64,000 nt of DNA from Nanobdellota archaeon (GTDB taxonomy: Archaea; Nanobdellota; Nanobdellia; Pacearchaeales; GW2011-AR1): contig JAHIWS010000006.1 of the NCBI GenBank assembly GCA_018815925.1, positions 14,286 to 78,285 of the forward strand, in the 5' to 3' direction. The translations under genes and the position numbers were made by a program. Positions 3,351-59,636 of the stretch are shown here, one piece after another. Under the pieces are notes generated by a model. It was not told where the DNA came from. It did not search any database and was given only the letters and a program-made list of their open reading frames with translations. Position 1 is the stretch's first letter. Each line of letters starts with the position of its first letter.

Positions 3351-3422
3351 TCATAGATGGTGTGGTTTTTGTTAAAAATCTCCGTGCCCATAGCTTAGTT
3401 TAGGGGTGCAAGACCAACATTT

Positions 3423-3809
3423 TTATTTTCCATTTTTATTTTTTTCCTCAAAATTCTCTATGGCTTTTTTTAAAGCATCAATACCCAGAACAGAACAATG
3501 AACTTTAATTGGTGGCATTCCTTTGAGTTTTTTAATTATGTCTTTTTTTGTTAATTTTTTAGCTTGTTCTAGGGTTTTACCTCTTGCTAATTCACAAACA
3601 ACATCAGAGCTAGCAACTGCTGCAGGGCATCCAAAAGTGTGAAATCCAATATCTTTTATTTTATTTTCATCAACTTTGATTTGAAGATTCATAATATCTC
3701 CACATTTTATATTTCCAACCTCTCCAACTCCATCTGGATTTTTAATTTTCTTAACATATTTTGGGTTTCTAAACCTCTTTACAAGCTCTTTTGAATATCT
3801 TAGTGTCAT
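3423..3809 (-). CDS. iscU: Fe-S cluster scaffold protein IscU/NifU N-terminal type
   Basis: GNIKCGDIM...HTFGCPAAVASSD...VHCSVLG carries the three conserved Cys of IscU. Last gene of the cysteine desulfurase operon. Confidence 0.9.
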   Translation of the reverse strand: MTLRYSKELVKRFRNPKYVKKIKNPDGVGEVGNIKCGDIMNLQIKVDENKIKDIGFHTFGCPAAVASSDVVCELARGKTLEQAKKLTKKDIIKKLKGMPPIKVHCSVLGIDALKKAIENFEEKNKNGK

Positions 3810-4501
3810 TTTTTAACATCATATATTGATTGTATTCCAAACCATTTTTTATTTATGTTATGAGTATTTATTGTTGATTTTAGATTTAGATTAAAATTTA
3901 ATTTTCCTTTTTTAACTTCAATTACTTTTTTTCCATTACCTAACTTGATTATTTTAATAGGTTTGAAGGTTTTAATAAATTTTTCAAAATGAATTTGTTT
4001 AATTTTATCTTGTATTTTTAATAAAGGAAGAAACTCTTTAGAAATATTTGGATTTTCATGAAGGGTTATTCTTGCTATCCCTTTTTTTGATAAAATTCTT
4101 GTAACTTCTTCATAAAAATGAATTTTATCTTTGTAAAGATAAGTTGAGGTTTGACTATAAACTAAATCAATTGATCCTGATTTAAAAGGTAATTTTTTTC
4201 CAGCATCACCAAAAATTATTTTTGGAAGCTTTATCTTCTTTAAATCTTCTTTATTAATTATTTTTTCTTTTAATGCAAAATCAACCATTATTTTTTTATT
4301 TCCATGACTAGGTTTTAAATTCATTCCAATAATTTCAACTTTATTTCCAAATTTTTTAGTTAATTCCATCATTATCTTACCATAACCCGGACCTGATTCA
4401 AATATCTTGACTTTCTTTTTCTTTTTTAAAAGCATTGAAATTATTTTTTCTAGATCTCCTAGCTTCTTTTTTGCTTCTTTTAATCCCCTTGTTTTTGTCA
4501 T
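3806..4501 (-). CDS. class I SAM-dependent methyltransferase
   Basis: Motif I-like IFESGPGYGKIM, later IDLVYSQ. 4-nt overlaps with both neighbours. Confidence 0.65.
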   Translation of the reverse strand: MTKTRGLKEAKKKLGDLEKIISMLLKKKKKVKIFESGPGYGKIMMELTKKFGNKVEIIGMNLKPSHGNKKIMVDFALKEKIINKEDLKKIKLPKIIFGDAGKKLPFKSGSIDLVYSQTSTYLYKDKIHFYEEVTRILSKKGIARITLHENPNISKEFLPLLKIQDKIKQIHFEKFIKTFKPIKIIKLGNGKKVIEVKKGKLNFNLNLKSTINTHNINKKWFGIQSIYDVKK

Positions 4502-4701
4502 ATTTTATTCAACCTCTCTACAATTTCATCAATATCTTTTTTATTCATTCCATGAGCTTTGCAGCCTTGTTCAAGTGTTTCTTGTGCTGCTGCAGGACAC
4601 CCAACACAGTAAAGACCTACTTCAAATAAAATCTCAGAAACTTTAGGGTTCATGCTAAGTAGCTCACTGAGTTTTGTTTTTTCTGTTATTTTCTTTTTCA
4701 T
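4498..4701 (-). CDS. DUF1858-type small redox/disulfide protein (hybrid-cluster-associated family)
   Basis: 67 aa, LSMNPKVSEILFEVGLYCVGCPAAAQETLEQGCKAHG resembles the CxxC-containing DUF1858 family. Confidence 0.6.
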   Translation of the reverse strand: MKKKITEKTKLSELLSMNPKVSEILFEVGLYCVGCPAAAQETLEQGCKAHGMNKKDIDEIVERLNKI

Positions 4702-4826
4702 TTTCTAATTATCTTCATAAAATTCTTTTTCTGAATCTTCTAAATTTATGTTAGATTCATCAAATTCTTCTTCACATTCAGATTCATTCTTGAACTCACA
4801 TGCATGTTGTTTAAATTTATCTTTCA

Positions 4827-5489
4827 TTATGATTCCTTCTCCATAAAAATATAATTCCAGATATTGTTTCCTCCAACACCTGGTTTTTCACACACTTTAC
4901 TTTCAATTATTTTGAAATGAGGGTCAAATAATTCTTTAAGTTCATCTAAGGAGGAAAAATACAATGTTGCTCCTACTGGTCTTGTTACACCTTCAGGTCT
5001 TTTTTGTTTTCCAATAACTTCTTTAGATTTTTTCCCTTTACCAGATTTTCTATCTTTAACATTAAATGAAATAGAGAGATACTTTCCATTTTTGTTTAAT
5101 AATTTATTTATTTCTTTAACATATTTTTTTCTTCTTTCATGTGAAATATGATGCAATATAGCCCATTCAAGTATAAAATTAAATTTTTCATTTATTTTAT
5201 TTAAATCTTCAACATTTGTTGCTATGAATTTTATTTTAACTCCTGCTTTTTCTGCATTTTGTTTTGCAAGATTTATTGCATTTTCTGATATATCAATTCC
5301 AGTAACTTCAAATCCTTGTTTTGTCAAATAAATAGCATAAAACCCTTCTCCACACACAACATCTAAAACTTTACAAGGTTTAATCTTTTTTGTTTCTATT
5401 AATTCTACTAGTTCCTCTGGAGGAGTAGTTGAAGTCCAAACTGCAGGGGGGTTTTTATAAACTTTTTCTAAAGCTTTTTTGTCATCCAT
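4827..5489 (-). CDS. class I SAM-dependent methyltransferase
   Basis: VLDVVCGEGFYAIYLTKQGFEVTGIDISENAINLAKQNA is SAM-binding motif I plus post-I. 8-nt overlap with the cysteine desulfurase gene. Confidence 0.8.
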   Translation of the reverse strand: MDDKKALEKVYKNPPAVWTSTTPPEELVELIETKKIKPCKVLDVVCGEGFYAIYLTKQGFEVTGIDISENAINLAKQNAEKAGVKIKFIATNVEDLNKINEKFNFILEWAILHHISHERRKKYVKEINKLLNKNGKYLSISFNVKDRKSGKGKKSKEVIGKQKRPEGVTRPVGATLYFSSLDELKELFDPHFKIIESKVCEKPGVGGNNIWNYIFMEKES

Positions 5490-16780: not shown

Positions 16781-16828
16781 CTTTTCCAACACAATTATAT
16801 TTATAAAAAAATTATAATTCTATTGAAA

Positions 16829-18499
16829 ATGGTAAAATTAGTTAATCCAAAAGTAAAAATTCTTGATTATGGTCCTAAAATCATGAGTAAAAATGGAAAA
16901 GTAATTCTTACCCCTGATGAACTTGTTTATGGAGGAGCTATAGCAACTTATCAAGATGTTGATTCTATGCAAGAATTATTAAATAAAAAGAAAGAATATT
17001 TTCAATTAAAAAAAAGATTAGATAATACAACAGATTTTGCTAAAAAACAAAATCTTGAAGCAAAAATAGAAGATTTAGATTATAGTCCAAAAAAAATTAA
17101 AAATAAAATTTTAGGTATTTGTGCAAGAGGTCATGCTTCTATGGCTACAACTCCTGTTGTCTGGTTTGATATTATGAATTCTTCAAAATTAATTGACTCT
17201 ATTTTTACTGGAGCAAGATTTGGAAGTTTTTTAATGCCTTCAAGTAGAAGAGTTCCAATAACAAAAGAAAATATTGTTATACCAAGAGGAGTTAAGGAAA
17301 AAGGTAGGAGAGCTGAAAAAATATATGTTGAATCAGCTGAAAATAATGTTGAAACCTATGAAAAAGTTCAGAACAATAATGTTGAAACCCAAGATGCAAG
17401 CAAAATAGTTCATTATGGCCATGCTGGAGGCGGAAGATTACAAATGCCTTTAGACACAATTATTTATTTTAAAAATTTGATGGATAATGATTTTGATAAT
17501 GCTATTCCTAGAGAAGGCAAAGAAATCATATCACAATTAGATTCTTGGATTAGGGATGGTAGTGGAATGGAAAATATTTATGTGGGAAAATTAAGAGCTC
17601 CTAGAACAAGTTGTGTTAATCCGAATATTTTTACATTTAGAAGAAACAGAGCCGAAAAATTAAAAGAAAAACTTGGAATAGGAATAGAACCTATGATATT
17701 AAATAAAAATATTGAAAAAGATAATGAAACTATTTATAGGATGCAACAGTGGTTAGATTATAGAAAGGAAATTTTTTCTGATTCAGATAGACTCAAAAAT
17801 GAAGGAAAAAAATTATTAGACAAATTAGATGAGATTATTGTGGATAATAATGGATTGATTAATTTTGAAATGGGTGTTAAAATTCCTTGGAGAGTTTGGG
17901 GTGAAGTAAAAAGACACAGGACAATGCCTCAAACAACAGAATCAGTTTATAATGCAATGGACAAAACTTTAGAAGTTGTGCACAATTTTGAGTTACATAA
18001 GAGAAATGTAGATGTAGAAGTAATACTTGATGCTTATCTTCCAATAATTGATATCCCTATCCCTGTTCAAAGAAATGAAGATAATCTTGAGTTATGGATT
18101 AATGCTTGGGATAAATCTGCTTTAGCTTATCAAAAACTTGTTGAGATGGGTGTTGAAAAAAGTGATGCAATTATGATAGTTCCAAGAGCACTTTTACTTG
18201 CAAATATTAAAACCTATGATTTGTACAACGCTACAACAGGATATGGGTCTTTAAGAAAATGTAGCTCAGTAGAGAATAAAATGAAAGAAATAACAAGAAA
18301 AGAATTGGAATTAATAAAGGAAAGTGTTGATTATAAAATTGGTTGCTTATTAGAACCTAAATGTGAGTATATTGGTTATTGTCCTGAAATAAATACTTGC
18401 GGGAATATTACTCAAAAATTTCTTCCTTCATATACAAAAGAGTTTCATAAAAATTTTAATAAAAAAAGGATTAAAAAGATTAGAGAAGAGTTAAAGTAG
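16829..18499 (+). CDS. thyX: ThyX-like flavin-dependent thymidylate synthase, double-length form
   Basis: RGHASMATTPVVWFDIMNSSKLIDSIFTGARFGSFLMPSSRRV resembles the ThyX core with a degenerate signature. A second repeat, FEMGVKIPWRVWGEVKRHRTMPQTTES, carries RHR. Located between dut and thioredoxin. The ORF track starts at a TTG at 16823; ATG at 16829 is preferred. Confidence 0.55.
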   Translation: MVKLVNPKVKILDYGPKIMSKNGKVILTPDELVYGGAIATYQDVDSMQELLNKKKEYFQLKKRLDNTTDFAKKQNLEAKIEDLDYSPKKIKNKILGICARGHASMATTPVVWFDIMNSSKLIDSIFTGARFGSFLMPSSRRVPITKENIVIPRGVKEKGRRAEKIYVESAENNVETYEKVQNNNVETQDASKIVHYGHAGGGRLQMPLDTIIYFKNLMDNDFDNAIPREGKEIISQLDSWIRDGSGMENIYVGKLRAPRTSCVNPNIFTFRRNRAEKLKEKLGIGIEPMILNKNIEKDNETIYRMQQWLDYRKEIFSDSDRLKNEGKKLLDKLDEIIVDNNGLINFEMGVKIPWRVWGEVKRHRTMPQTTESVYNAMDKTLEVVHNFELHKRNVDVEVILDAYLPIIDIPIPVQRNEDNLELWINAWDKSALAYQKLVEMGVEKSDAIMIVPRALLLANIKTYDLYNATTGYGSLRKCSSVENKMKEITRKELELIKESVDYKIGCLLEPKCEYIGYCPEINTCGNITQKFLPSYTKEFHKNFNKKRIKKIREELK

Positions 18500-18500
18500 A

Positions 18501-18576
18501 CATAATTTTCGGCTTTGCACATTTAAATGATTCTGCACATAAATATGCTTAAATTAAGTGCAAAGCCATAATTTTC
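18501..18576. mobile_element. 57-bp MITE-like inverted-repeat element (18511-18567) with 9-bp flanking direct repeat ATAATTTTC
   Basis: The termini GGCTTTGCAC ... GTGCAAAGCC are perfect inverted repeats. (c)ataattttc is present on both flanks. A second copy of identical length lies at 19460-19516. Confidence 0.5.
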
Positions 18577-18590
18577 AAAACCTTTATAAA
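18577..18590 (+). promoter_or_regulatory. BRE/TATA promoter of the thioredoxin gene
   Basis: AAAACCTTTATAAA. The TATA ends 23 nt before the ATG at 18614, which implies a leaderless or near-leaderless mRNA. Confidence 0.55.
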
Positions 18591-18613
18591 TATCTTTTTT
18601 CCTTAATTAAATA

Positions 18614-18955
18614 ATGAGTGAAAATAAAATGGCTGGAAATGATAAAGTTCCTGAACTAACAAATGCAGAATTTAATGATTTTACTAAAGAAGGTTTAGCA
18701 CTTGTGGATTTTTTTGCAGAATGGTGTATGCCTTGTGTTATGATGGGTCCTATTATTGACGAACTTTCTGAAAAATTCAAAGGAAAAATTAAATTCGGAA
18801 AAGTCAATGTTGAAGATAATCAAAGCCTAGCAGCTAAGCATAATGTTTCTTCTATACCTAATATGATTTTATTTAAAAATGGAAAAGAGATTGAAAGATT
18901 TATTGGTTCTGTTTCTGCAGAGGATTTTGAGGTGAAGTTGAAGAAATTTCTCTAA
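18614..18955 (+). CDS. trxA: thioredoxin
   Basis: VDFFAEWCMPCVMMGP (WCxPC active site, here WCMPC), VDVEDN, SIPNMILFKNG. Confidence 0.9.
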   Translation: MSENKMAGNDKVPELTNAEFNDFTKEGLALVDFFAEWCMPCVMMGPIIDELSEKFKGKIKFGKVNVEDNQSLAAKHNVSSIPNMILFKNGKEIERFIGSVSAEDFEVKLKKFL

Positions 18956-18993
18956 GTAAAACTTTTTAAACACATTTTAATTTATTGAGCTAT

Positions 18994-19113
18994 GGCTCCG
19001 TAGCTCAGCCTGGCAGAGCACTGGACTTTTAAGCTGAAACATGTTTCGCTTCCTTAGCGAATTTGATTCACAAAGGAATCCAGGTGTCGAGGGTTCAAAT
19101 CCCTTCGGGGCCA
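18994..19113 (+). tRNA. tRNA-Lys (anticodon UUU) with 46-nt intron (19032-19077)
   Basis: Acceptor GGCTCCG/CGGGGCC, D arm GCTC-AGCCTGGCA-GAGC, anticodon stem CTGGA/TCCAG with loop CTTTTA|intron|A, T arm GAGGG-TTCAAAT-CCCTT, discriminator A. The intron is at the canonical 37/38 position. Confidence 0.85.
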
Positions 19114-19450
19114 TACTTTTTTGAGTAAGTAATTTATCTTCCAAATTGCTTATTGAATTATAAAAAGAGGAAAAAAGAAATAAATTAATGCCTGATTATT
19201 TAGTAAATCTTAAAAAATTACTTCTTAGGAGACAATTTCCAGTATCTTATATGAGAATCTAGATTTAGTTCTCTTCCCCTTCCATCAGTAACTTTAACAT
19301 AGGATGCAAATACTGGTAAAGACCTATAACTGTTTCTTTCATTGGATCCTCTTTTTTACCATTATATTCTTTACCTGTTCAAATATATAAACTACTTGTC
19401 TAAATATTACTAGAATAATTCTTATAAATAGATACCTTTAATACACCAGA

Positions 19451-19525
19451 GAACCCACCGGCTTTGCACAATAAGTGGTTCTTGCACAAAAAGTCATCTA
19501 GTTATTGTGCAAAGCCGAACCCACC
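19451..19525. mobile_element. 57-bp MITE-like inverted-repeat element (19460-19516) with 9-bp flanking direct repeat GAACCCACC
   Basis: GGCTTTGCACAATAA ... TTATTGTGCAAAGCC (15-bp inverted termini). Exact 9-bp GAACCCACC on both sides. Same length as the 18511-18567 copy, with the same internal TGCACA at the same offset. Confidence 0.55.
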
Positions 19526-19539
19526 AAAACCTTTTTAAA
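19526..19539 (+). promoter_or_regulatory. candidate BRE/TATA promoter of the RNA polymerase operon
   Basis: AAAACCTTTTTAAA directly after the MITE-like element, about 80 nt upstream of the rpoH ATG. Confidence 0.4.
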
Positions 19540-19619
19540 CCAAATTTTACTTTCTTTTATTATTGCAAAGTTATTAAAATTTTCACTTGGTTGATACTCT
19601 GCAAAACCCTATTACAAAA

Positions 19620-19829
19620 ATGCCACATATTCTGCAACCAAAACATGTCAAGCTTAATGAAAAAGATGCTGAGAAATTGCTACAAGGATTAAATATTTCT
19701 AAAGCCCAATTACCCAAAATTCTTTCTACAGACACTGTGCTTCCAGAAGGATGTCAGGTAGGGGATATAATTAAAATAGAAAGAAAAGATAGAGACAAGG
19801 TTTATATTTATTATAGGGTGGTAGTGTAA
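19620..19829 (+). CDS. rpoH: DNA-directed RNA polymerase subunit Rpo5 (RpoH)
   Basis: MPHILQPKHVKLNEKDAEKLLQGLNISKAQLPKI...GDIIKIERKD...YYRVVV matches the RpoH pattern (HxLVPKH ... QLPxI ... GDVVxIxR ... YRxV). The ORF track's TTG start at 19587 is unlikely. Confidence 0.85.
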   Translation: MPHILQPKHVKLNEKDAEKLLQGLNISKAQLPKILSTDTVLPEGCQVGDIIKIERKDRDKVYIYYRVVV

Positions 19830-35553: not shown

Positions 35554-36078
35554 TCAAGGCATGAATTCTTCATACTTTTTTTTATCTTCAAAAGGAAGAT
35601 CTGTCCTTGTTCTTACAGGCTCGATATTAGGAAAATCAAAATTAAATTCATTATCTGTATTAATATTTCTTAAACGTGGGTCTAGAAAATTATGTCTTAG
35701 AATTTTATTAAATGTTTCTCTTGCTTTTAAAACAGGTGGCTCAAATACTTTTTCATAACCCTCCTCATCAGAAGTTCTTCTGGATACTGATGAATATTTT
35801 GGTTCATTTATTATATAATTCATCTTAGTTGGTTTTTCTTCATCTTGTATTTGTGTGGAAAAATTTTCTTCTAAACTAGGTGTTTCTTGAAAAATTTCGT
35901 TTTTTTCTAAAACTGGAGAAATATTTTTATTTTCTCTTTGAATTTGTCCAGAAGATTGCATAAAAGATTGAAACTGATTTTCATCTCTTTGAATATCAGA
36001 ATCTTCTTCATTAATTTCTTCTGATATTTCTTCTAATTCCTCTACTTCCAGTTCTTTTTCTAATTTGTCATTATCCAT
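35554..36078 (-). CDS. hypothetical acidic protein (174 aa)
   Basis: ORF 2 nt downstream of the 487-aa ORF. E/D-rich N-terminus. Confidence 0.45.
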   Translation of the reverse strand: MDNDKLEKELEVEELEEISEEINEEDSDIQRDENQFQSFMQSSGQIQRENKNISPVLEKNEIFQETPSLEENFSTQIQDEEKPTKMNYIINEPKYSSVSRRTSDEEGYEKVFEPPVLKARETFNKILRHNFLDPRLRNINTDNEFNFDFPNIEPVRTRTDLPFEDKKKYEEFMP

Positions 36079-36080
36079 TT

Positions 36081-37544
36081 TTAAGTAAAACTAGCCATTC
36101 CATGAGCTTTTTTATAAATATCAAATAAATCAAAAGCTATTTTTTCTGCTTTTTTTGCAGCTAAAGGTCTTAAGAGTTCTGATTCAGTCCAATCATCTTT
36201 TTTTACTATAATTTCTTTAGATTCTTTAAGTTTTTCCTTTTTTTCAGGTTTATCATAATGGCCTATTAAAGCTAAAAAAGGATTAGAAGTATCACTTGAT
36301 TTTTCAGGTTTATTAATTTGTTCTTGTTCTTCTAAAAAATAATTAATTTCTTCTTGCAATTGTTCTAAACTTTCTGTTGTTGACCCTTCTATAAGTTTTA
36401 AAACATCTCCTAAATCAGAATCGTTCATTTCTTGGTTTATTTTTTTAATTTCATCATCATTTAAAGAATAAGCCCTAAACATAACATCAGCTTTTCCTCC
36501 AAAAACATAATGAGATTGTTGAGATGGTAATCTTGATGGAATTCCTCTAAATGTAAAATCAACTAAAATACATGTGTAATAATTTCTTTTTATTGTTTTA
36601 AGAAAAGATTCTTTTGAAAAGTCCTGTGGAAGATCACCTTCAAGTGCTGAATCTCTAATCTTTAATTTTGATTTTCCTAAAAGAGTTAGTTCAAGCAGCA
36701 TTGTGTTGAATATTTTAACTAATGCAGGCTCTCTTCCAGATTCTTTCATTTCAAGTTGCGAAGCTGCTTTTAAATATGGTTTTGCCCATCTTGAATATAA
36801 CTTAAGAGAATTAACTTGACTTTTTAAGTAAGCTCTTTCAAGGGCATATCTTCTTCTAAGTTCTTGTTCAGATTGGTTTAACCAAGACTCAAACTCCATA
36901 ATTCTTGGCCTTAAAATCCTTTTTATCCTATCATTTAAATCTATTTTATCAATATCTTTTTGATTTTTAACAATTAAAAAAGCATCAAGTAAAGTTTGAA
37001 ATCCTGCTTGACCTAGAGCCATGGCTTTTATACTTGAATTTCCTTTCACAATATCAACCTTATCTAACCAAATTTGTTTTAAGGCTAATACAGACGCTTC
37101 TTGGGTTTCCTTTTTTTTGGATTTTAAATAATCATAATGTTCTAATCTTATTTTAAAGTCCCTAAGATCATAAGTAATATTTAAAATACTTTTTAAAATG
37201 GTATTTACAGTAGCTAAAGTATTTGATGCTTGTTGTTGCATTGAAGTGGCTCTTAATCCTAATTCTTGAAAATGTCCTGATCCAGGTGTTGAAGTAAAAT
37301 TATCAATATATTTTTCTGGAGCAAGTCCAAAATCATTCATTAAATCTAAAATAAAAAAATAAAGTGGTTCAAGTGTTTCAGATGATGAGTTATAACCAAG
37401 ATGATGTTCTGAGATTGATTTAGGTTCAACTTCTTCAGCAGGAATATTATCAGAATTTTTATATTTTTTTAAAAGTTCTTTTCCATTTGCAGCATATAAT
37501 CTAGGATTAACTTTTCCTATAATTTGTTGAACACTCGCGACCAT
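36081..37544 (-). CDS. hypothetical protein (487 aa), largely helical
   Basis: Long ORF with non-repetitive sequence. No family recognised by eye. Confidence 0.5.
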   Translation of the reverse strand: MVASVQQIIGKVNPRLYAANGKELLKKYKNSDNIPAEEVEPKSISEHHLGYNSSSETLEPLYFFILDLMNDFGLAPEKYIDNFTSTPGSGHFQELGLRATSMQQQASNTLATVNTILKSILNITYDLRDFKIRLEHYDYLKSKKKETQEASVLALKQIWLDKVDIVKGNSSIKAMALGQAGFQTLLDAFLIVKNQKDIDKIDLNDRIKRILRPRIMEFESWLNQSEQELRRRYALERAYLKSQVNSLKLYSRWAKPYLKAASQLEMKESGREPALVKIFNTMLLELTLLGKSKLKIRDSALEGDLPQDFSKESFLKTIKRNYYTCILVDFTFRGIPSRLPSQQSHYVFGGKADVMFRAYSLNDDEIKKINQEMNDSDLGDVLKLIEGSTTESLEQLQEEINYFLEEQEQINKPEKSSDTSNPFLALIGHYDKPEKKEKLKESKEIIVKKDDWTESELLRPLAAKKAEKIAFDLFDIYKKAHGMASFT

Positions 37545-50029: not shown

Positions 50030-50200
50030 GCGTGGATGGTTTAGTGGTAGAACATAACGTTGCCAATGATGGAAACCAATGTTTCCCTTCACAACCCTTC
50101 CTTTTTAGTACAGAAAGGTACTTCCTTTCTCTTCCTCTAATAGGAAGTAAGAAGAAAAAGCAAAAACGTTAGGATCCGGGTCCGATTCCCGGTCCGCGCA
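50030..50200 (+). tRNA. tRNA-Gly (anticodon GCC) with about 100-nt intron (50066-50165)
   Basis: Acceptor GCGTGGA/TCCGCGC, D arm GTTT-AGTGGTA-GAAC, anticodon stem TAACG/CGTTA with loop TTGCCA|intron|A, T arm CCGGG-TCCGATT-CCCGG, discriminator A. Confidence 0.8.
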
Positions 50201-59472: not shown

Positions 59473-59636
59473 CCCTTCGTAGCTTAGTGGTTAAAGCGCC
59501 TGGCTGTAGAATAGGGTGGATATTCCGCTATCATATTTGTGGAAATTAAATGAAACCTGATTAGTCAGCTCCTGTTGACTGCCTATTAAAATATGCAGTG
59601 CCCGGGAGATCCCCAGTTCGAATCTGGGCGAAGGGA
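59473..59636 (+). tRNA. tRNA-Tyr (anticodon GUA) with about 91-nt intron (59510-59600)
   Basis: Acceptor CCCTTCG/CGAAGGG (the archaeal C1-G72 identity pair), D arm GCTT-AGTGGTTA-AAGC, anticodon stem CCTGG/CCGGG with loop CTGTAG|intron, T arm CCCAG-TTCGAAT-CTGGG, discriminator A. Confidence 0.8.

Follow-up and report, generated by a model that had tools for sequence, protein, structure and literature searches.

Organization of the trx–rpoH locus

The window analysed here is a 64,000-nucleotide stretch of a Nanobdellota archaeon (contig JAHIWS010000006.1, positions 14,286 to 78,285 of the forward strand), and it carries two 57-bp elements, one in front of the trx gene and the other in front of rpoH. 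The features of the locus, in window coordinates, are as follows.

18502-18510, unstranded: left TSD of copy 1, ATAATTTTC, starting 2 nt past the TAG stop (18497-18499) of a ThyX-like ORF
18511-18567, + strand: copy 1 (putative MITE), 57 bp, GGCTTTGCACATTTAAATGATTCTGCACATAAATATGCTTAAATTAAGTGCAAAGCC, outer ends GGCTT/AAGCC
18568-18576, unstranded: right TSD of copy 1, ATAATTTTC, directly touching the trx BRE
18577-18590, + strand: BRE/TATA of trx, AAAACCTTTATAAA; the same promoter occurs without the element in relatives
18629-18955: trx coding sequence (Pfam Thioredoxin, E = 4e-26)
18994-19113, + strand: intron-containing tRNA-Lys(UUU) gene (Rfam tRNA, 55 bits), between the copies and not part of the element
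19451-19459, unstranded: left TSD of copy 2, GAACCCACC
19460-19516, + strand: copy 2 (putative MITE), 57 bp, GGCTTTGCACAATAAGTGGTTCTTGCACAAAAAGTCATCTAGTTATTGTGCAAAGCC
19517-19525, unstranded: right TSD of copy 2, GAACCCACC, directly touching the rpoH BRE
19526-19539, + strand: BRE/TATA of rpoH, AAAACCTTTTTAAA
19553-19579: conserved leader of rpoH, between BRE/TATA and coding sequence
19620-19829: rpoH coding sequence (Pfam RNA_pol_Rpb5_C, E = 7e-18)

The first-pass annotation had described the two elements, and its coordinates, the perfect termini GGCTTTGCAC/GTGCAAAGCC of both copies and the internal TGCACA (18534-18539 in copy 1, 19483-19488 in copy 2) all proved exact, as did the different 9-bp direct repeats around them. 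Its placing of the copies against the BRE/TATA boxes upstream of trx and rpoH was likewise confirmed, with both genes identified by Pfam. The tRNA gene that it had noticed between the copies is borne out by the Rfam match and can be read as tRNA-Lys(UUU) because its anticodon loop reads CTTTTAA; this gene has its own BRE/TATA at 18958-18970. The 335-bp spacer that follows it (19114-19450) showed no blastn or tblastx similarity among the loci compared.

Neither 57-bp element contains an ORF, and small size without coding capacity is in keeping with a MITE. The perfect terminal inverted repeat (TIR) measures 10 bp in copy 1, and in copy 2 it measures 15 bp inside the element or 16 bp with the flanking C/G, so that both copies reach the length of at least about 10 bp expected of a MITE. 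Copy 1 holds three TGCAC-N8 sites, namely L1 at 18516, L2 at 18534 and an inverted R1 ending at 18562, and belongs to a subfamily designated 'TGCAC-ATTTAAAT'. The corresponding sites of copy 2 read TGCAC-AATAAGT (L1), TGCAC-AAAAAGT (L2) and, inverted, TGCAC-AATAACT (R1), and its L2 site contains TTGCACAAA, the same as in the ISAba12 TIR. The interiors of the two copies are only ~50% identical, though TIRs and TSDs are perfect in both, a combination that fits two subfamilies with constrained sites and would also fit selection on the elements.

The full pattern with up to three mismatches matched exactly twice in the window, against 0 expected from 100 shuffles, while no further copy was found in an extension of ~10 kb beyond both window ends, which gives two copies in ~74 kb. 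The chance of one 9-bp flank identity was calculated as ~2e-5 at the local base composition, and such identity is seen at both copies.

Both elements are predicted to fold into hairpins (-16.7 kcal/mol, z = -3.0 for copy 1; -27 kcal/mol, z = -6.7 for copy 2), and one could therefore read them as the gene of a structured small RNA, or as a terminator hairpin, instead of a DNA-level element. The stability on both strands and the position of copy 1, 2 nt past a stop codon and followed by TTTT, would suit such an RNA, which is nevertheless scarcely credible: the stem is simply the TIR, the loops are unconserved except for the TGCAC sites, and flanking duplications and empty sites are signatures of DNA transposition. 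In Rfam searches of the elements at gathering and permissive thresholds, only sub-threshold noise was returned (E = 3-10). A C/D-box sRNA was rejected by eye for want of a RUGAUGA/CUGA arrangement on either strand, replication-origin ORB elements were rejected since no orc1/cdc6 gene is adjacent and the element sequence is presumably unlike known ORBs, and integron attC-like sites belong to the wrong domain of life, with no integrase present.

Empty sites in relatives

The element is absent from all 63 orthologous rpoH loci of relatives and from L128-L131, of which L131 is the closest relative, as well as from the trx promoters of relatives. Several of these loci (L131, L148/150, L153, L156, L173 and L180) carry ..AACCAC.. 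once, directly beside the conserved BRE/TATA, in the place that GAACCCACC-MITE-GAACCCACC takes up in the window. A single target 9-mer beside the same BRE/TATA is the empty site expected of a MITE, for which the first-pass annotation had advised a search. As a consequence of the insertions, the regulatory DNA upstream of trx, like that of the rpoH-rpoB-rpoA operon, is shifted by 66 bp, solely in the lineage of the window.

The same loci bear on the other reading that the annotation had offered, a conserved three-site operator whose TGCACA boxes bind a host factor co-regulating trx and rpoH, the repeats being incidental. Three TGCAC sites at fixed spacing in both copies, each copy lying immediately upstream of near-identical BRE/TATA boxes, would agree with it. 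An operator should, however, be conserved at orthologous promoters, while at least 63 promoters of relatives keep BRE/TATA and leader without the element, so its conserved-operator origin is refuted by the very comparison that had been proposed for it. Moreover, the same element stands before unrelated genes in distant phyla, with differing 9-bp duplications, and has cargo-carrying versions with TSDs, which together leave an operator next to no likelihood.

A family of mobile elements in archaea

Among the matches listed, the hosts of elements bearing these ends include Pace-, Woese-, Nano- and Aenigmarchaeota, Thermoplasmatota, ANME-1, Methanosarcinales and Hadarchaeota, all as named in the titles of the MAG records. 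Exact 9-bp flanks (9/9) were found at 12 of the 120 matches listed, comprising both window copies and 10 others, and all of them differ from one another; a fixed duplication length (9 bp) with differing sequence among copies is what a MITE should leave. Near-identical copies (55/57) also lie at unrelated sites of other DPANN genomes, and L069, for example, is 55/57 identical to copy 2 yet flanked by GGCTTTCTC. Mobility is shown by the differing TSDs together with the empty sites. The window copies themselves are best explained as two distinct subfamilies that were inserted after the split from the closest sampled relatives.

The archaeal elements range from 47 to 77 bp. Longer elements that carry cargo between the same ends, again with TSDs of 9 bp, are also present (L063, 1603 bp; L061, 1107 bp; L068, 1941 bp), and two scans of viral contigs yielded solo ends and a 781-bp cargo element (L123). 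Near-identical copies in distant DPANN hosts and the presence of the ends on viral contigs point to horizontal spread.

The internal CTGCAC hardly varies, if at all, in the alignment, although the search pattern did not contain it, and the 7-8 nt behind each TGCAC co-vary across the three sites of a single element, as would be expected of transposase-binding sites. The arrangement of direct, direct and inverted TGCAC(A) sites had thus been seen rightly from the start, though the data indicate putative transposase-binding sites.

A literature search on the 10-mer terminus returned primer noise only, and in the searchable literature neither the terminus nor an archaeal MITE of IS903-like type nor insertion phased to promoters was found described. 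The family is widespread in archaea, with at least six lineages, and, as far as that literature goes, appears to be undescribed.

Insertion in phase with the archaeal promoter

The duplicated 9 bp are the 9 bp directly upstream of the BRE, and this positional rule holds across archaea. Among the matches listed, the BRE stands at offset 9 and the TATA box at offset 15 in 24 of 38 archaeal copies (63%, against 12% expected under a non-coding null; P = 1.4e-13), and an in-phase promoter-like flank is absent in 14 of the 38. In DPANN, 6/13 copies have a perfect BRE/TATA motif beginning at offset 9-10 (P ~5e-14), and none of these 13 copies has one at any other offset of 0-47. Offset 15 is likewise the start of an A/T octamer in 9 of 26 DPANN flanks and in 11 of 40 other archaeal flanks, compared with a background of 0.015 per position, and in none of 173 bacterial flanks. 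The rule is obeyed by four of five independent imperfect copies, and real genes begin 44-76 nt downstream of the in-phase promoter motifs. The first-pass annotation had been right about the adjacency to BRE/TATA, although it did not recognise it as an insertion-position rule of the whole family.

The rpoH promoter is occupied in three genomes, the window, L026 and L051, and was hit independently: the 9-mers differ, the orientation is opposite, and the L026 and L051 hosts are more distant from the window than its MITE-free relatives. The L051 copy has no TSD. Generally, the asymmetric element lies beside promoters in both orientations, 7 versus 3.

The phase might be thought an artefact of survivorship, in which insertion is random and only the spacer between stop codon and BRE tolerates 66 extra bp. 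Copy 1 does sit within an 11-nt spacer of this kind, and DPANN genomes are very compact, with only ~16% of the analysed archaeal loci non-coding. Such an artefact is nonetheless highly unlikely, for the TSD preserves both neighbours, so that about (spacer + 9) positions would be tolerated, yet one offset recurs; the rule is also found where intergenic regions are long, as in Methanosarcinales, ANME-1 and Thermoplasmatota; copy 2 lies within a non-coding region of ~400 bp; and the null that gave 12% was itself confined to non-coding DNA.

Selection offers a second way to account for the placement: an element of MITE origin might have been exapted as a mobile regulatory module, its abutment on the BRE being kept because it serves as an activating or insulating sequence. 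Archaeal activators typically act just upstream of the BRE, which counts for this reading, and the binder could be, for example, a transposase-derived factor. Perfect TIRs and TSDs kept despite the strong divergence of the interiors also speak for it, as does the occupation of the same promoters in different lineages, three times for rpoH and probably twice for trx. Occupancy is patchy, however, with 63 rpoH loci lacking the element; the downstream genes are functionally unrelated; the asymmetric element lies beside promoters in both orientations; and a phase exact to one nucleotide in more than 20 independent copies is explained more simply by the cut site of the enzyme than by selection acting on random insertions. 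Exaptation is thus an unlikely explanation of the phase.

Targeting by the transposase, which is the preferred reading, could use the promoter in two ways, either by direct reading of RAAA-NN-TTTWWA or by recognition of TBP/TFB-bound, bent DNA. In the latter case the archaeal pre-initiation complex might direct the transposase, which would cut at the BRE's upstream border, a tentative proposal that stays on the doubtful side. Such guidance would explain why the rule holds across phyla of very different base composition, why it is one-sided despite both orientations of the element, and why insertions recur at strong housekeeping promoters, rpoH among them. If true, it would be the first prokaryotic counterpart of initiation-factor-directed integration as in Ty3 and Dictyostelium TRE5-A.

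Ends related to IS903 and ISAba12, and the search for a transposase

The ends of copy 2 are identical to the IS903 IR (GGCTTTGTTGAATAAATC, checked on an annotated copy) at 14-15 of the first 20 positions, and an opening GGCTTTG is common to both. They do not resemble those of IS1, whose IR we take to be GGTGATGCTGCC...: copy 2 agrees with it at 8/20 and the ends of copy 1 at 5/20 and 10/20. The annotation had suggested looking for an IS with the same termini, and both IS903 and the ISAba12 group match, with the same TSD length; ISAba12-group elements of ~1,040 bp have the TIR GGCTTTGTTGCACAAA and a TSD of 9 bp (PMC6382973 Table 2), and share GGCTTTG and TGCACAA with the window elements. Members of the IS903 subgroup are recognised by their length (950-1150 bp), their DDE transposase and a DR of 9 bp (PMC8431375); the window elements have the 9-bp DR and the GGC-type end.

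Moreover, the IS903 enzyme reads the bases flanking the duplication, with the palindromic target motif WTTYA-N9-TRAAW (PMC2577343), of which the TRAAW half resembles the RAAAM that starts the BRE. One flank of the archaeal elements, R-A-A-A-M, fits T-RAA-W at 4/5 positions, while the other flank lacks the mirror motif, and promoter-like flanks on both sides occur in 3 of the 38 copies listed. IS903 differs in that it is an autonomous IS of bacteria, 1057 bp long, whose preferred target is palindromic, whereas the preference of the archaeal family is one-sided, takes in the full BRE and TATA (~14 nt) and is seen in archaeal copies only.

A transposase was sought in several ways. The Pfam scan took in the 30 window ORFs (170 aa or longer) that had no clear identity beforehand, and no transposase family was found among them; six of them had no Pfam match, and for these NCBIfam likewise gave nothing significant and no transposase model. 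The best tblastn hit of the IS903 transposase in the window (E = 0.18, at 35773-35985) falls on an ORF with no family match, which adjoins a 487-aa ORF unlike a transposase, and the earlier statement that the window holds no transposase therefore stands. Likewise, a search of ~1.2 Mb of loci, of viral contigs and of the window with ~10 kb of extension turned up no autonomous element and no transposase associated with these termini. Because none was found, the family assignment is made from ends and TSD length only.

A number of candidate partners were discarded. L061, L063 and L068, found as terminus pairs 500-4000 bp apart with TSDs, have ORFs without a Pfam transposase match and are considered cargo or composite elements, and L083 and L103 have ordinary genes inside. 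L004, the only IS903 tblastn match among the loci (E = 1e-4), is an unrelated IS5-like fragment with a different terminus. In addition, a TnpB-like ORF 430 bp from a solo end on a viral contig (L125) is probably unrelated.

From the ends and the duplication, we infer that the mobilising transposase is an IS5-family DDE enzyme of IS903/ISAba12 type. A parent in another family with 9-bp TSDs and GG-NNN-TG ends, for instance IS1 (archaeal ISMhu11-type with passenger genes), is rather improbable but deserves consideration: two binding sites at one end are, to our knowledge, no described feature of IS903, no IS903-like transposase was found near any copy of the archaeal family, and cargo-carrying derivatives of 781-1941 bp are present in it. 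IS1-family elements likewise give 9-bp TSDs (ISKpn14, PMC9430514). Apart from the scores of the copy 2 ends given above, it is opposed by the GGCT(TTG)TTGCACAA that these ends share with ISAba12 (PMC6382973) and by the flank preference of IS903, T-RAA-W, which is compatible with the observed R-AAA-M at 4/5 positions (PMC2577343).

Proposed mechanism and significance

Both elements are very probably MITEs with IS903/ISAba12-like ends, mobilised in trans and targeted to the 9 bp upstream of the BRE; the original suggestion of a very small MITE is supported by the further copies, the empty sites and the IS elements with matching termini. As non-autonomous DNA transposons they would consist of little beyond transposase-binding sites, with a cleavage-proximal GGCTT end on each side, two direct TGCAC-N8 sites at one end and a single inverted site at the opposite end. 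A transposase supplied in trans would bind the TGCAC-N8 sites and move the element, and integration through a 9-bp staggered cut would then produce the flanking 9-bp duplication. The target chosen would be the 9 bp immediately upstream of an archaeal BRE. A cut at this place leaves both the core promoter (BRE, TATA and start site) and the upstream gene intact, which would make the insertion site a safe harbour in a compact genome, and the insertions are probably roughly neutral for trx and rpoH expression.

The placement of 9-bp duplication, BRE and TATA implies a DNA transposon that reads archaeal promoter architecture. If the rule holds, in-vivo promoters of uncultured archaea would carry a natural marker, archaeal genetics would gain a candidate system for safe-harbour integration, and recruitment of a transposase by TBP/TFB could be put to a tractable test.

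Comparison with known elements

Ty3 of yeast and TRE5-A/DGLT-A of Dictyostelium keep a constant distance from an initiation complex containing TBP when they integrate, and so find a safe harbour in a compact genome. Their likeness to the archaeal family is one of functional analogy only, as they are eukaryotic retroelements relying on TFIIIB protein contacts, whereas the archaeal family equally fits sequence-directed targeting.

MITEAba12, with its IS5-family-type parent ISAba12 (Acinetobacter, ~1,040 bp), is also a non-coding MITE moved in trans with a 9-bp TSD, and the resemblance extends to the GGCTTTG and TGCACAA of the ISAba12 TIR and to TTGCACAAA, which is exact in copy 2 (PMC6382973). 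It differs in its length of 113 bp, its bacterial host with co-resident parents, its AT-rich targets without a sequence pattern and its outward sigma-70 promoters. The archaeal elements, in contrast, are 47-77 bp long, have an extra internal (putative) binding site and a TIR without a 3-nt TGT, have no parent found, and are inserted in phase with BRE/TATA. Correia elements, which are Neisseria MITEs, are similarly short elements with TIRs, are found mostly just ahead of genes and can affect the promoters next to them (PMC10969869), but their duplication is TA, they bring promoters of their own along with an IHF site, and they keep no fixed distance to a host promoter.

Archaeal MITEs (Sulfolobus SM1-4, Halobacterium, Haloquadratum) are likewise non-autonomous, intergenic TIR elements (PMC10969869). 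A MITE in a DPANN genome is as such ordinary, and high MITE densities have been described in DPANN genomes (PMC11602168).

Two MITEs at the trx and rpoH promoters

The two inverted-repeat elements in front of trx and rpoH, whose gene identities are confirmed by Pfam, are both 57 bp long, and their first-pass description holds in the sequence: both start with GGCTTTGCACA, end with GTGCAAAGCC, carry TGCACA at element positions 24-29 and are followed immediately 3' of the right repeat by a BRE/TATA element.

Window 18511-18567: copy 1, flanked on each side by ATAATTTTC, with AAAACCTTTATAAA before trx
Window 19460-19516: copy 2, flanked on each side by GAACCCACC, with AAAACCTTTTTAAA before rpoH

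The full element pattern occurs twice in 64 kb, while none is expected from shuffles. The element is absent from all loci fetched for the nearest relatives by RpoB and from 63 metagenome rpoH loci, only the locus from the window's own genome (L127) being positive. The rpoH promoter and its long leader are kept across the relatives' loci, where a single sequence containing AACCAC stands directly 5' of the rpoH BRE (L131, L148/L150, L153, L156, L173 and L180), and the same site in the window reads GAACCCACC-MITE-GAACCCACC; by comparison of the loci, this is the classical empty-site pattern. The elements are short, bounded by terminal inverted repeats (TIRs), flanked by target-site duplications (TSDs) and absent from orthologous sites. 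The relatives' trx promoters are empty as well, except in one population (L129/L130/L137), where an 8-nt match to the right end of the MITE is followed by exactly 9 nt and then by BRE/TATA (L129 120-165, ..GACGCAAAGCC-GTATTTTAC-AAAACTTTTATAAA). In L129 the upstream ORF ends just 11 nt before this match, and what remains here is probably a second insertion, decayed or truncated, that struck the same position in another lineage. The alternative of a three-site TGCACA operator is not borne out, since the orthologous rpoH and trx promoters of relatives lack the element.

Insertion in phase with the promoter

The 9-bp duplication stops precisely where the BRE starts. In L026 and L051, the element stands directly 5' of the conserved rpoH promoter and leader that they share with the window, and in L087, L113, L052 and L004 a BRE/TATA-like sequence stands immediately after the 9-mer. 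Positional statistics were drawn from 38 archaeal copies among the matches listed, the offset being counted in nt outward from the element end. In 6 of the 13 DPANN copies listed (26 outward flanks), the strict motif R-A-A-[ACG]-N-N-T-T-T-W-W-A-A starts at offset 9-10, and no perfect motif is present at other offsets from 0 to 47; at a background of 2.3e-4 per position, the chance of finding 5 or more of 26 at a single offset is 4.6e-14. Free of any motif, the start of an eight-A/T run peaks at offset 15, which equals the 9-bp TSD plus the 6-nt BRE, in 9 of 26 listed DPANN flanks and independently in Methanosarcinales, ANME-1, Thermoplasmatota, Hadarchaeota and Aenigmarchaeota (11 of 40 flanks among the matches listed), against a background of 0.015, and the bacterial-labelled loci used as control have no peak (0 of 173 listed flanks at offset 15). 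The rule is also kept in four of five imperfect archaeal copies, which are independent of the exact pattern, such as those of L039 (GAAATGTTTAAAT) and L083 (CAAAAGGTTTAAAT), both at offset 9.

Under a relaxed criterion, 24 of the 38 listed archaeal copies are in phase and 14 are without an in-phase promoter, where non-coding positions of the same loci would give 12% per copy (P = 1.4e-13). The position-matrix consensus, N8-S followed by R-A-A-A-M-S-T-T-T-W-W-A-W-A, is as a motif the canonical archaeal BRE/TATA, and the genes starting 44-76 nt 3' of in-phase motifs include those for a SecE-like protein, proteasome alpha and AlaRS, as well as rpoH and trx. The asymmetric element occurs next to promoters in both orientations (7 versus 3 among the matches listed). 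At rpoH, the flanking 9-mers differ among the three insertions (window, L026 and L051), the L051 copy being without a TSD; L026 and L051 are opposite in orientation to the window, and their hosts are 70-73% identical to it in the RpoB N-terminus, against 83-84% for MITE-free relatives, so that these are independent insertions at one promoter.

A DDE transposase of the IS903/ISAba12 type, acting in trans, would bind the TGCAC-N8 sites, cleave at GGCTT and integrate the element by a 9-bp staggered cut, at a position that would be determined by the promoter. The IS903 transposase has been reported to read five bases on each side of the 9-bp duplication, WTTYA-N9-TRAAW (PMC2577343 Table 1); four of the five positions in its half-site T-R-A-A-W fit the R-A-A-A-M seen here, so that an ancestral flank preference could have extended to BRE/TATA recognition. 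Reading of sequence alone, as by IS903, could choose the target; against it, the preference seen in this family is one-sided and covers about 14 nt, TATA box included. The alternative is recognition of bent DNA bound by TBP/TFB. By either route, because the TSD would regenerate the target on both sides, the end of the upstream gene and the core promoter would both remain intact, and the element would sit in one of the few harmless positions of a compact genome; at copy 1, the spacer from stop codon to BRE was originally just 11 nt. Survivorship alone cannot give a phase of single-nucleotide precision, and long-spacer genomes show the rule as well. Selection for a regulatory role of the elements may contribute, but the data do not call for it. 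Correia elements offer the closest functional analogy for the placement, as they lie upstream of genes, but out of phase, and Ty3 and TRE5-A are more distant functional analogies for the placement rule.

Transposon type and predicted binding sites

IS903 from an annotated plasmid is 1057 bp long, has inverted repeats GGCTTTGTTGAATAAATC and carries the annotation 'IS5-like element IS903 family transposase', and the ends of copy 2 share 14-15 of their first 20 nt with it. With what we take to be the IS1 end, 8 of 20 are identical. Elements of the IS903 subgroup measure 950-1150 bp, have a DDE transposase and show direct repeats of 9 bp (PMC8431375). The ISAba12 group has about 1,040 bp, a DDE transposase, a 9-bp TSD and the TIR GGCTTTGTTGCACAAA, and from it derives the MITE MITEAba12, which measures 113 bp and likewise has TSDs of 9 bp (PMC6382973 Table 2). 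GGCTTTG and TGCACAA, the two halves of the ISAba12 TIR, are found in the terminus of the window family, and TTGCACAAA is exact in copy 2 at 19482. MITEAba12/ISAba12 is the closest described element, and the IS903 transposase is the closest studied enzyme. Regarding an IS with the same termini, the IS903/ISAba12 ends and the TSD length of 9 bp agree, but a transposase-bearing element with these ends was not found in the fetched loci. As no transposase partner was found in the fetched loci, the viral contigs, the window (in agreement with the first-pass annotation) or about 10 kb past its ends, we infer the IS903/ISAba12-type assignment from the termini and the 9-bp length of the TSD.

L125 677-1789: TnpB/IS605-OrfB-like ORF on a viral contig, 371 aa, zinc-finger motif at the C-terminus
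L125 2222-2239: solo GGCTTTGCACCTAAAGTC terminus, 430 bp from this ORF
Window 35554-37544, minus strand: two adjacent ORFs of 487 aa and 174 aa, no Pfam/NCBIfam match

The TnpB-like ORF near the solo terminus is probably a coincidence, and a weak tblastn match of the IS903 transposase within the 174-aa ORF (E = 0.18) is most likely noise.

In an alignment of 17 oriented copies, the internal CTGCAC, which lies outside the search pattern, is invariant or nearly so, and the elements are made of three co-varying sites, in which the 7-8 nt 3' of each TGCAC change together within each element (AATAAGT / AAAAAGT / AATAACT in copy 2, CTAAAGT two times in L085 and TTTTATT / TTTTAAT / TTTTATT in L056). 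This is what the predicted binding sites of a cognate transposase should look like. Members of 47-50 bp consist of two TIRs only and those of 57-77 bp have an extra site, and copies 1 and 2 differ strongly inside because they represent two subfamilies.

Distribution and mobility of the family

MITEs as such are known from archaea, including Sulfolobus, Halobacterium and Haloquadratum (PMC10969869), and DPANN genomes showed very high MITE densities in a census (PMC11602168), but a literature search of incomplete coverage found no description of the terminus of this family, of an IS903-like archaeal MITE family or of promoter-phased insertion. A scan for GGCTTTGCAC-N27-57-GTGCAAAGCC in one genome per prokaryotic species gave at least 119 loci, with taxon labels taken from MAG titles. 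Part of the listed matches are unrelated GC-rich bacterial repeats, and many belong to Pace-, Woese-, Nano- and Aenigmarchaeota, Thermoplasmatota, ANME-1/Methanophagales, Methanosarcinales and Hadarchaeota. Further copies with their own duplication do exist, as exact boundary 9-bp repeats are present in 12 of the 120 matches listed and are all different.

The Woesearchaeota copy L069 (3668-3724), in a different DPANN genome, differs from copy 2 (window 19460-19516) at 2 of 57 positions (55/57 identity) and has the flank GGCTTTCTC; L037 and L026 are also close to copy 2, with different flanks. Together with the solo or complete family ends on IMG/VR viral contigs (L121-L125), the L069 copy suggests horizontal spread, possibly viral. 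The family ends also bound five elements of 0.8-1.9 kb, three of them with 9-bp TSDs.

L063 1689-3291: 1603 bp, ANME-1, same ends, 9-bp duplication
L061 2039-3145: 1107 bp, same ends, 9-bp duplication
L068 3002-4942: 1941 bp, same ends, duplication matching at 8/9
L123 4555-5335: same termini
L103 1837-3399: same termini

Their cargo comprises small unknown ORFs, a membrane protein and a glycosyltransferase, and no transposase; the passenger ORFs of L063, L061 and L068 have no transposase match in Pfam. Passenger genes between MITE termini indicate that MITE ends can mobilise cargo, partly as MITE-pair composites. A 68-bp member in L017 (5140-5207), a contig labelled Desulfobacteria, is flanked by an exact TSD of 9 bp, with AAAAACTTTTTAGG, a motif of archaeal type, at offset 9; the contig may be mis-binned archaeal DNA.

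Surroundings of the two copies

The window has a G+C content of about 28%, and its intron-containing tRNAs and the gene order rpoH-rpoB-rpoA mark it as archaeal. Its RpoB is 100% identical to an RNA polymerase subunit B recorded for a Nanoarchaeota archaeon, and its closest relatives by RpoB are labelled Pacearchaeota, a DPANN placement. Three intron-containing tRNA genes (18994-19113, 50030-50200 and 59473-59636; introns of about 46 to 100 nt) were detected by Rfam and missed by ARAGORN. The gene 5' of trx varies among close relatives: window 16823-18499 encodes an unusually long ThyX-like protein of 558 aa, with Pfam Thy1 at residues 346-500 only, where the closest relative, L131, carries ThyA and DHFR (3397-4992). 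Judging from gene content, the thymidylate-synthase system is exchanged, with the breakpoint at the MITE/trx-promoter position.

About 335 bp (window 19114-19450) separate tRNA-Lys from copy 2, with no ORF of at least 30 aa, only noise in Rfam and no blastn or tblastx similarity among the fetched loci; in L131 and L129 the corresponding spacer measures about 90 bp and about 60 bp, respectively. In L131 (5590-5690), the tRNA-Lys 3' end (CAAATCCCTGCGGGGCCATT) is duplicated about 80 bp 3' of the tRNA, which resembles the leftover att site of an integrated element since lost. A strongly conserved block, ATCTTTTATTATT-N3-5-AGTTGTTAAAG (window 19553-19579; also upstream of rpoH in L128-L194), lies about 10-40 nt 3' of the rpoH TATA and covers the expected transcription start and early leader. 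For the rpoH-rpoB-rpoA operon, it could be an initiator or a regulatory element in the 5' UTR, and by a strict regex it is present in 42 of 67 relatives' loci.
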